Positions 32,839 to 33,473 of a DNA stretch of 64,000 nt are shown piece after piece. Origin of the DNA: Escherichia coli (lineage in GTDB: Bacteria > Pseudomonadota > Gammaproteobacteria > Enterobacterales > Enterobacteriaceae); NCBI RefSeq assembly GCF_965641715.1, contig NZ_OZ282453.1. The stretch is one strand, 5' to 3'. The notes beneath the pieces are model-generated. The model was not told the DNA's origin and made no database searches. It saw only the letters and a program-made list of their open reading frames with translations. Made by a program: the position numbers and the translations under genes. Every line of letters starts with the position of its first letter. Positions within the stretch are counted from its first letter, which is position 1.

Positions 32839-33432
32839 TCACTCCTTGAGAATAGTTTTTATCGCTTCCCCCGCCAGTGCAGCTGTTGCACAGAGTTGTT
32901 CGATGGAGTGCCCCTCCCGTGCCTTCGCAGAAAGCCCTGACATCACGGTACTCATAAAATCAGTCACACATTGTGCGCTTTGTGGATGCCGCCTGGCGAT
33001 ATAGTCATAAATGGCCGTTTCTGCGGCGTGATAATATTGAACGGCAATATCACGCGCTTGTGGATCATGACTATGAATGCCTTCAAGAACCATACAGCCA
33101 GCGCAGCCGCCGTTTTGGCTATATCTGCGCGCCGCTTCTTTTAATACCTCAGCCAGGCACTCCCCTACCGGACGATCATCACGAAGAATATCGGCAAGCG
33201 GAATAGCTTCCGTACCGACATATTCATTGAGTACACGGCTAAATAACCCAGCCTTATTGCCAAAAGCCGCGTAGAGGCTCGGGGGGTTAATACCAAGATA
33301 ATCAGTAACTTCAGCAACACTGACAGCATCGAAACCTTTTTGGTGAAAAAGCACTTTTGCCGCAGAGACTGCCTGCTCAGGAGCGAAACGTCTGGGACGA
33401 CCTGGAACGCGAGATTGTTTTTTAGTGACCAT
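32839..33432 (-). CDS. bdcR: TetR-family transcriptional regulator
   Basis: 197 aa; N-terminal TetR HTH; divergent from bdcA. Confidence 0.85.
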   Translation of the reverse strand: MVTKKQSRVPGRPRRFAPEQAVSAAKVLFHQKGFDAVSVAEVTDYLGINPPSLYAAFGNKAGLFSRVLNEYVGTEAIPLADILRDDRPVGECLAEVLKEAARRYSQNGGCAGCMVLEGIHSHDPQARDIAVQYYHAAETAIYDYIARRHPQSAQCVTDFMSTVMSGLSAKAREGHSIEQLCATAALAGEAIKTILKE

Positions 33433-33473
33433 TACAAAACTTGTTGACAGAAAGTTAAAACAGTTTTGTAATG
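33430..33473. promoter_or_regulatory. Candidate BdcR operator: 12-bp perfect inverted repeat (CATTACAAAACT-N20-AGTTTTGTAATG) spanning the bdcA promoter
   Basis: Arms read directly; the spacer contains TTGACA (33444-33449) and TGTAAT sits 17 bp downstream inside the right arm; the left arm overlaps the bdcR start codon. Confidence 0.6.

Follow-up and report, generated by a model that had tools for sequence, protein, structure and literature searches.

The tet operators are closely spaced. In Tn10, tetO1 and tetO2 give repression of the target gene together with autoregulation (PMC3511530), and for CifR, from P. aeruginosa, two operator sites have been described in the cifR-morB region, of which the cifR-proximal site binds 10-fold tighter (PMC10827105). 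The minimal CifR site is 23 bp, and one dimer binds per 26-mer, with the prolines of its helix-turn-helix (HTH) motifs in adjacent major grooves, the two HTH motifs of the dimer 37.9 Å apart, and Arg6 of the N-terminal arm in AT-rich minor grooves (T4-T6, A23'); binding is lost on mutating T4/A23 or C15-T18 of the site, or with the R6A substitution in the protein (PMC10827105). Here, we analyzed the control region between bdcR (yjgJ) and bdcA (yjgI), two divergent genes in a 64,000-nucleotide stretch of Escherichia coli DNA (NCBI RefSeq assembly GCF_965641715.1, contig NZ_OZ282453.1; hereafter the window). Published work describes negative regulation of bdcA by BdcR (PMC6598151, PMC6790063). 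No BdcR operator turned up in the available literature, and the available passages of PMC3946193 and PMC12825309, both of which cover this region, name no BdcR site.

A divergent neighbor less than 200 bp away serves as a rule for assigning targets to TetR-family regulators (PMC3511530), and the start codons of bdcR and bdcA lie only 70 bp apart. In this 70-bp intergenic region and the first codons of bdcR, we identified a 22-bp palindrome that is present twice. We predict that the two copies, which we call O1 and O2 (Table 1), are operators for BdcR, and assign this reading a probability of about 0.82. Judged from sequence, they are two tandem operators of the CifR type rather than one split palindrome, with BdcR as the protein that would bind them. 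O1 has the exact core TGTA-N8-TACA at 33467-33482, and O2, in the orientation of bdcR, reads TTTTGTA-ATGGTCAC-TAAAAAA; their centers are 46 bp apart. O1 spans -16 to +6 of the bdcA promoter and -29 to -8 of the bdcR promoter, so that the bdcA start site and both -10 elements fall within it. O2 takes in bdcR from its start codon to codon 5; it lies at +18 to +39 of the bdcR transcript and at -62 to -41 of the bdcA promoter, where it abuts the bdcA -35 element. Both predicted operators are therefore placed on or directly beside promoter elements.

Family conservation and the match to CifR operators

For the family comparison, one genome per species was scanned, 591 relatives were found, and the best 80 of the 591 were used to compare loci. 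The BdcR homologue was accompanied by a divergent BdcA orthologue in 80/80 loci, drawn from the Alpha-, Beta- and Gammaproteobacteria, with an intergenic gap of 67-79 bp. Outside E. coli, identity to the E. coli proteins was 52-64% for BdcR and 76-85% for BdcA, and the HTH region of BdcR was almost invariant across homologues. The core TGTA-N8-TACA was matched at at least seven of its eight positions in 71 of the 80 loci at the O1 position and in 78 at the O2 position, and the spacer was 8 nt in every locus (80/80). With its conserved neighboring positions, the shared motif is the symmetric TWWTGTARTG-NN-CAYTACAWWA, with TTTTGTAGTGATCACTACAAAA as its symmetrized 22-bp consensus.

An information profile of these loci revealed five conserved blocks, namely the bdcA Shine-Dalgarno sequence with the bdcR -35 element, O1, the bdcA -35 element (GTCAAGG on the bdcR strand) and O2, of which O1 and O2 are symmetric. 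No further block was conserved, and the profile falls to zero information over about 18 columns from O1 to the bdcA -35 element. In loci with at least 60% G+C (mean 65%), the operator half-sites are 85% A+T. The bdcR start codon falls within the O2 spacer in 78/80 loci, and the codons that follow it (ACT ACA AAA) make up the outer half of O2, GC-rich genomes included.

We built a 22-bp position weight matrix (PWM) from 78 other species, leaving out E. coli, and scanned the 64-kb window with it. O2 (27.3 bits) and O1 (25.1 bits) were the two best matches, followed by a third at 10.0 bits; the family median is 24.4 bits. On 360 kb of family loci, the same matrix returned 154 matches inside divergent regions and 1 outside. 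One other exact TGTA-N8-TACA occurs in the window, TGTAGCCTCGAATACA at 60579-60594, but it lies outside the ten best full-PWM matches, the tenth of which scores 1.0 bit, and is therefore probably due to chance.

Among solved structures, the closest to BdcR is CifR bound to its 26-bp operator (phmmer E = 1e-18, template-modeling score (TM) 0.77, 29-30% identity; PDB 6NSN, 6NSM and 6NSR, PMC10827105). The two proteins have in common an N-terminal RGRPRxF arm and a PPSLYAAFG(N/S)K recognition helix. The DNA contacts of CifR, Arg6, Pro44, Pro45, Tyr48 and Lys54, correspond to R12, P50, P51, Y54 and K60 of BdcR, all of which are invariant (alignments A1 and A3). The operators match as well. When applied to the cifR-morB locus (L084), the BdcR-family PWM produced two matches, both intergenic and 50 bp apart (compared to 46 bp in the window): one at 1466-1487, proximal to cifR, with 21.0 bits, and one at 1416-1437 with 17.6 bits; the next match scored -9.6 bits. 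All eleven bases named in PMC10827105 (T2, T4, T5, T6, C15, A16, C17, T18, A23, G16' and A17') fit TTATTTGTATCGATCACTATAAATTT, the reverse complement of L084:1464-1489, and the crystallized 26-mer is therefore centered on the stronger of the two matches, as we deduce from the available text of that paper.

Two further observations concern the CifR sites themselves. Their authors described the two operators as only weakly palindromic (PMC10827105); set against the consensus of the BdcR family, each conforms to a clear 22-bp palindrome in which AT-rich flanks surround TGTA/TATA-N8-TACA/TAAA. In addition, the PWM ranks the sites in the same order as the reported 10-fold difference in affinity.

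Comparing the window with a divergent E. coli-group genome, we found 0 differences in the 70 intergenic positions, 65 in the 594 of bdcR and 42 in the 714 of bdcA. Of 4770 E. coli genomes, 4669 have an identical sequence from 33444 to 33503. The polymorphisms found in E. coli, at 33441 and 33443, lie just beyond the 22 bp of O2. Separately, strain HCP8S3_I1 (L082) carries a rare variant at 33481 that turns the outer core of O1 from TACA into TAAA. This C-to-A change is the one fixed in the outer core of E. coli O2, and it is also present in 8/80 O2 sites, in other species, so this outer-core position appears to tolerate it.

Several points weigh against the two-operator reading or temper the evidence for it. 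The outer core of O2 in E. coli is TAAA, not TACA, and the start-to-start distance between O1 and O2 varies from 45 to 50 bp across the family loci, giving no sign of a fixed helical phasing. The eight core columns of the PWM are inflated, because each site was picked for its TGTA-N8-TACA match, the best one within 15-17 nt of searched sequence; this selection did not act on the flanking and inner positions or on the sites of E. coli and CifR. The orthologous sites are also phylogenetically non-independent. Conservation of the O1 inner half is confounded with the two -10 elements that it contains, and that of the O2 outer half with bdcR codons 2-5. Finally, a chromatin immunoprecipitation sequencing (ChIP-seq) compendium included yjgJ, and, according to the part of that work available, the yjgJ model failed its quality criteria (R2 below 0.6).

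The 12-bp inverted repeat and competing explanations

The initial annotation of this region, made from sequence alone, had singled out a perfect 12-bp inverted repeat with a 20-bp spacer. A repeat search of the window confirmed it: the left arm, CATTACAAAACT (33430-33441), and the right arm, AGTTTTGTAATG (33462-33473), are 12 nt each, 100% complementary and separated by 20 nt. First-order Markov simulations of the window indicated that the repeat is non-random, with an expectation of 0.15 perfect 12-nt inverted repeats (spacer up to 40 nt) per 64 kb and at least one such repeat in 8% of simulated windows. The actual window holds three such loci, and the two besides bdcR/bdcA are probable terminator hairpins. 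The overlap with the bdcR start codon also held, as this codon (33432..33430 on the minus strand, CAT on the plus strand) makes up the first three bases of the left arm, and the TTGACA/17/TGTAAT promoter proposed for bdcA is present between and within the arms and is backed by published promoter work, as far as the available parts of those papers go. The right arm holds both -10 hexamers, which overlap on opposite strands, and the left arm corresponds to +16 to +27 of the bdcR transcript.

Given where the PWM places O2 and O1, the arms of the repeat are the inner halves of these sites plus two flanking bases. The left arm consists of the O2 inner half-site (33430-33439) followed by CT, and the right arm of AG followed by the O1 inner half-site (33464-33473). 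The other half-site of each operator lies outside the repeat interval, at 33418-33429 in bdcR for O2 and at 33474-33485 over the bdcA start for O1. The 12/12 match of the arms in E. coli comes from the consensus 10-mer TTTTGTAATG, which is found in each of the inner halves, together with the two flanking bases. The last pair is polymorphic: among the 4770 E. coli genomes with the locus, position 33441 is T in 2879 (60%), which yields the 12-bp repeat, and C in 1592 (33%), which yields the 11-bp repeat of K-12-like strains.

If the arms worked as a pair, they should co-vary above other half-site pairings and at a fixed spacing; they did neither. In 79 other species, arm-to-arm complementarity averaged 7.2/12 with a maximum of 9, compared to 7.4/12 for the left and right halves of O1, 7.7/12 for those of O2, 7.25/12 for the two outer halves and 3.0 for random 12-mers, and the gap between the arms ranged from 19 to 24 nt. 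The four half-site copies pair equally well, so the two inner ones have no special relation to each other. On this sequence evidence, the 12-bp repeat is best described as the predicted inner half-site of O2 facing that of O1, and not as one split operator. Of the TetR-type arrangement initially proposed, the divergent control region stands, with repression and autoregulation very probable, but the arms are not the halves of one operator.

A single BdcR operator, with the 12-bp arms as its halves and the 20-bp spacer between them, could be bound by one dimer or by an arm-bridging tetramer. Such a site would make sense of a repeat that is perfect, statistically unusual and symmetric around the bdcA -35 hexamer, and whose arms contain the best E. 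coli matches to the consensus 10-mer. The geometry is wrong for one TetR-family dimer, however, with arm centers 32 bp apart as opposed to the adjacent major grooves, 37.9 Å spacing and 26 bp of covered DNA of the CifR dimer. The arm-to-arm match in other species, which only equals that of the three other half-site pairings, the variable spacer, the conserved partner half-sites outside the arms and the polymorphic 12th pair also count against it, and we consider a single operator very unlikely. We likewise regard it as highly improbable that the conserved blocks are RNA polymerase signals only, the symmetry being that of the pseudo-symmetric, overlapping -10 elements of a bidirectional promoter with no repressor site. 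The published bidirectional promoter, with its starts ~23 bp apart and its shared -10 region, the presence of both -10 hexamers in the right arm, and the selection of this region by RNA polymerase alone in systematic evolution of ligands by exponential enrichment (SELEX; available part of PMC3946193) all fit this idea, but it accounts for the inner half of O1 only. We rejected it because it leaves unexplained both O2, a second palindrome 46-50 bp away that includes the bdcR start codon, and the O1 outer half, which is conserved downstream of the point where bdcA transcription starts. Nor does it account for the exact 8-nt core spacing in 80/80 loci or the match to the crystallized CifR operator.

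The repeat could also act through nucleic-acid structure, as a DNA cruciform or as an RNA hairpin with a role in attenuation, termination or translational control. A transcript that contained both arms would indeed form a 12-bp stem of -14.8 kcal/mol (z = -3.5), but the bdcR transcript, starting at 33456, holds the left arm only and the bdcA transcript, starting at 33480, holds neither. The actual bdcR 5' region is less structured than 197/200 shuffles, and arm-arm complementarity is not kept in other species. Based on the start-site positions and the lack of conserved pairing, we rejected a hairpin or cruciform, the chance of which we consider negligible. Another regulator, such as a CRP-like protein, might instead own the palindromes. 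The CRP consensus TGTGA-N6-TCACA has the same 16-bp frame as TGTA-N8-TACA, but the positions of CRP's critical G and its mirror C are A or T in 80/80 loci when compared with this consensus, and a CRP-like site was rejected on these grounds. The only constant partner of the motif across the Alpha-, Beta- and Gammaproteobacteria is the adjacent BdcR gene, and the motif equals the operator of CifR, the closest solved relative of BdcR, making a different regulator exceedingly improbable.

Predicted mechanism and features of the locus

The general function proposed for the locus, repression of bdcA by BdcR with autoregulation, is very likely. By homology with CifR, we infer that one BdcR dimer binds each operator and that together they repress both promoters. 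The Pro-Pro tips of the BdcR HTH motifs would lie above the TGTA and TACA cores, in a pair of neighboring major grooves, and the N-terminal GRPR arm (Arg12) would enter the narrow AT-rich minor grooves at the operator ends. A dimer on O1 would sit on the bdcA start site and the shared -10 region and so keep RNA polymerase from transcribing either way. From its place immediately upstream of the bdcA -35 element, O2 would add to the repression of bdcA and, from its position over the start codon in the early bdcR transcript, would impede early bdcR transcription, providing autoregulation. With footprints of ~26 bp (33416-33441 and 33462-33487), the two dimers would bracket the bdcA -35 element and the bdcR start site.

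An inducer would then release BdcR. The epoxide-sensing Cys107 of CifR aligns with BdcR Cys113 (motif G112-C113), which is invariant in the BdcR family (alignment A3), so BdcR may be a thiol-based electrophile sensor whose inducer may be a thiol-reactive electrophile acting on Cys113. A broader and more tentative idea, which we think possible but rather unlikely, is that BdcR/BdcA is a CifR-like thiol-based electrophile- or epoxide-sensing detoxification module, with Cys113 as the sensor and the NADPH-dependent reductase BdcA as the effector, and not primarily a cyclic di-GMP/biofilm device. The BdcR/BdcA module was present in 591 of the 600 pattern-matched genome stretches examined. If the detoxification idea is right, the second operator would place the start codon and first codons of bdcR (M-x-T-T-K) within the binding site of the repressor that they encode, so that the DNA site would constrain the BdcR N-terminus.

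The analysis supplies a precise predicted operator for BdcR, a 22-bp palindrome present twice, and corrects the natural mistake of taking the 12-bp repeat for one site. It offers an explanation for how one bound dimer could shut the published bidirectional promoter both ways. It also links BdcR, the listed repressor of the biofilm-dispersal gene bdcA, to the structurally solved CifR system, which suggests both a mode of recognition (a Pro-Pro HTH together with an arginine arm that enters AT-rich minor grooves) and Cys113 as a candidate sensing residue. The region is an ordinary TetR-type control region, and what is gained is a useful annotation and a good design for mutagenesis, not a new principle.

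Table 1. Coordinates of the predicted operators, genes and promoter elements of the bdcR/bdcA region in the window.
Feature	Position	Strand	Basis and remarks
Predicted operator O1	33464..33485		22-bp palindrome TTTTGTAATGCATGTTACATAA (+ strand); second-best PWM match in window
Predicted operator O2	33418..33439		22-bp palindrome TTTTTTAGTGACCATTACAAAA (+ strand); top PWM match in window
bdcR	32839..33432	-	TetR-family repressor, 197 aa; Pfam TetR_N, RefSeq annotation
bdcA	33503..34216	+	Short-chain dehydrogenase/reductase, 237 aa; Pfam adh_short and adh_short_C2, RefSeq annotation
bdcA -35 hexamer TTGACA	33444..33449	+	In gap between O2 and O1; available parts of PMC3946193 and PMC12825309
bdcA -10 hexamer TGTAAT	33467..33472	+	Inside O1 inner half; 17-nt spacer from -35
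bdcA transcription start	33480	+	Cappable-seq, available part of PMC12825309, Table S2 as read here; inside O1 outer half
bdcR -10 hexamer TACAAA	33465..33470	-	Overlaps bdcA -10 on opposite strand; shared -10 region
bdcR -35 hexamer TTGATT	33488..33493	-	2-nt overlap with bdcA Shine-Dalgarno; family block CTCCTTGAG
bdcR transcription start	33456	-	Cappable-seq, available part of PMC12825309, Table S2 as read here; 24-nt leader
bdcA Shine-Dalgarno AAGGAG	33492..33497	+	Sequence, family conservation

The HTH domain of BdcR is a TetR_N match (PF00440, E = 4.7e-13, residues 23-66). The promoter elements in Table 1 are those of published work. SELEX with RNA polymerase assigned TTGACA-17-TGTAAT to bdcA and TTGATT-17-TACAAA to bdcR (available part of PMC3946193). 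The available part of PMC12825309 (2026) uses bdcA/bdcR as an example of a natural bidirectional promoter, reports in vitro transcription from it in either direction, and lists a 'bdcA down' construct in which the bdcA -35 element is mutated. The minus strand of the window from 33493 to 33444 is identical to the bdcA/bdcR construct in Table S2 of that paper. Bidirectional promoters of this kind have divergent starts 10-23 bp apart and overlapping -10 elements, and both features are found here, the starts lying ~23 bp apart. A consensus promoter scan of the region listed no promoter under a rule that demands A as the second and T as the sixth base of the -10 element; TGTAAT and TACAAA were missed because each breaks one part of this rule (TGTAAT has G at position 2).

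The bdcR leader has some features of its own. Its 24 nt (33433-33456, minus strand) contain no Shine-Dalgarno sequence, and the low structure of the bdcR 5' region noted above was measured over the first 57 nt of the transcript (-1.6 kcal/mol, z = +1.9). The leader is consistent with translation initiation via an unstructured A/U-rich start region, which O2 would impose. A study of the MazF regulon reported that yjgJ is cleaved 12 nt upstream of its start codon (PMC5001579). At exactly this distance ahead of the bdcR ATG, in the region of the bdcA -35 hexamer, there is an ACA (33442-33444, minus strand), so MazF could yield a near-leaderless bdcR mRNA.

The locus is present in 4770 of 5426 complete E. 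coli genomes and absent from the remaining ~12%, and it is carried on plasmids in 3 records. No relatives of E. coli BdcR between ~84% and 66% identity were found among the proteins listed, no other Escherichia species appeared among the best 80 of the 591 loci, and BdcA is far more conserved across the Alpha-, Beta- and Gammaproteobacteria than its regulator. This combination suggests that E. coli acquired bdcR/bdcA horizontally or that sister lineages lost it.

The window's two other perfect inverted repeats lie away from this locus. At 26843-26866, a perfect 24-bp palindrome, AAGGCCGGAGCATGCTCCGGCCTT, is flanked by an A-run and a T-run and sits between the convergent ends of a 951-aa open reading frame (ORF) on the plus strand and a 407-aa ORF on the minus strand; it looks like a bidirectional intrinsic terminator. 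The inverted repeat at 36584-36617, between pyrI and ridA, has 13-nt arms, AAAAGTCTGGCTC and GAGCCAGACTTTT, around an 8-nt loop and probably represents the pyrBI terminator.

Comparison with known systems

The CifR and BdcR loci each have two operators, predicted in the case of BdcR, ~50 bp apart between divergent genes. The two regulators belong to different subfamilies, CifR being ~30% identical to BdcR overall, and their regulons differ: CifR targets morB, a major facilitator superfamily (MFS) transporter and the cif epoxide hydrolase, whereas BdcR would control a single short-chain dehydrogenase/reductase. The intergenic region is 125 bp for cifR-morB and 70 bp for bdcR-bdcA, and the CifR site nearer the regulator gene is followed downstream by a normal Shine-Dalgarno sequence, whereas O2 lies over the bdcR start codon. 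Binding, stoichiometry and inducer were established experimentally for CifR; for BdcR, all three are predictions, as are the separate roles of O1 and O2.

The basic N-terminal arm of BdcR recalls SimR and other TetR-family repressors (listed in PMC10827105), in which an arginine reads narrow AT-rich minor grooves at the ends of the operator. Residues 1-17 of BdcR, which carry the invariant GRPR, are unstructured in a structure model. BdcR has no closer sequence relationship to the SimR-type repressors, and the contact of its arm with DNA is a prediction here. As a promoter, bdcA/bdcR compares with the bidirectional promoters of E. coli (Warman et al., 2021; available part of PMC12825309), among them acrA/acrR with the TetR-family repressor AcrR, and it is one of the five examples studied in that work. 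The available part of PMC12825309 treats the region as a polymerase-only element, whereas the symmetry described here is that of a 22-bp palindrome present twice and reaching beyond the -10 region.

In overall layout, the locus resembles Tn10, where TetR and its target are divergent and two palindromic operators, tetO1 and tetO2, lie over both promoters in a short intergenic region. The tet operators are 15-bp palindromes (PMC3511530), whereas those predicted for BdcR are 22 bp, 46 bp apart and have AT-rich minor-groove flanks, and, in a further departure from Tn10, one of the two lies partly within the coding sequence of the regulator itself.

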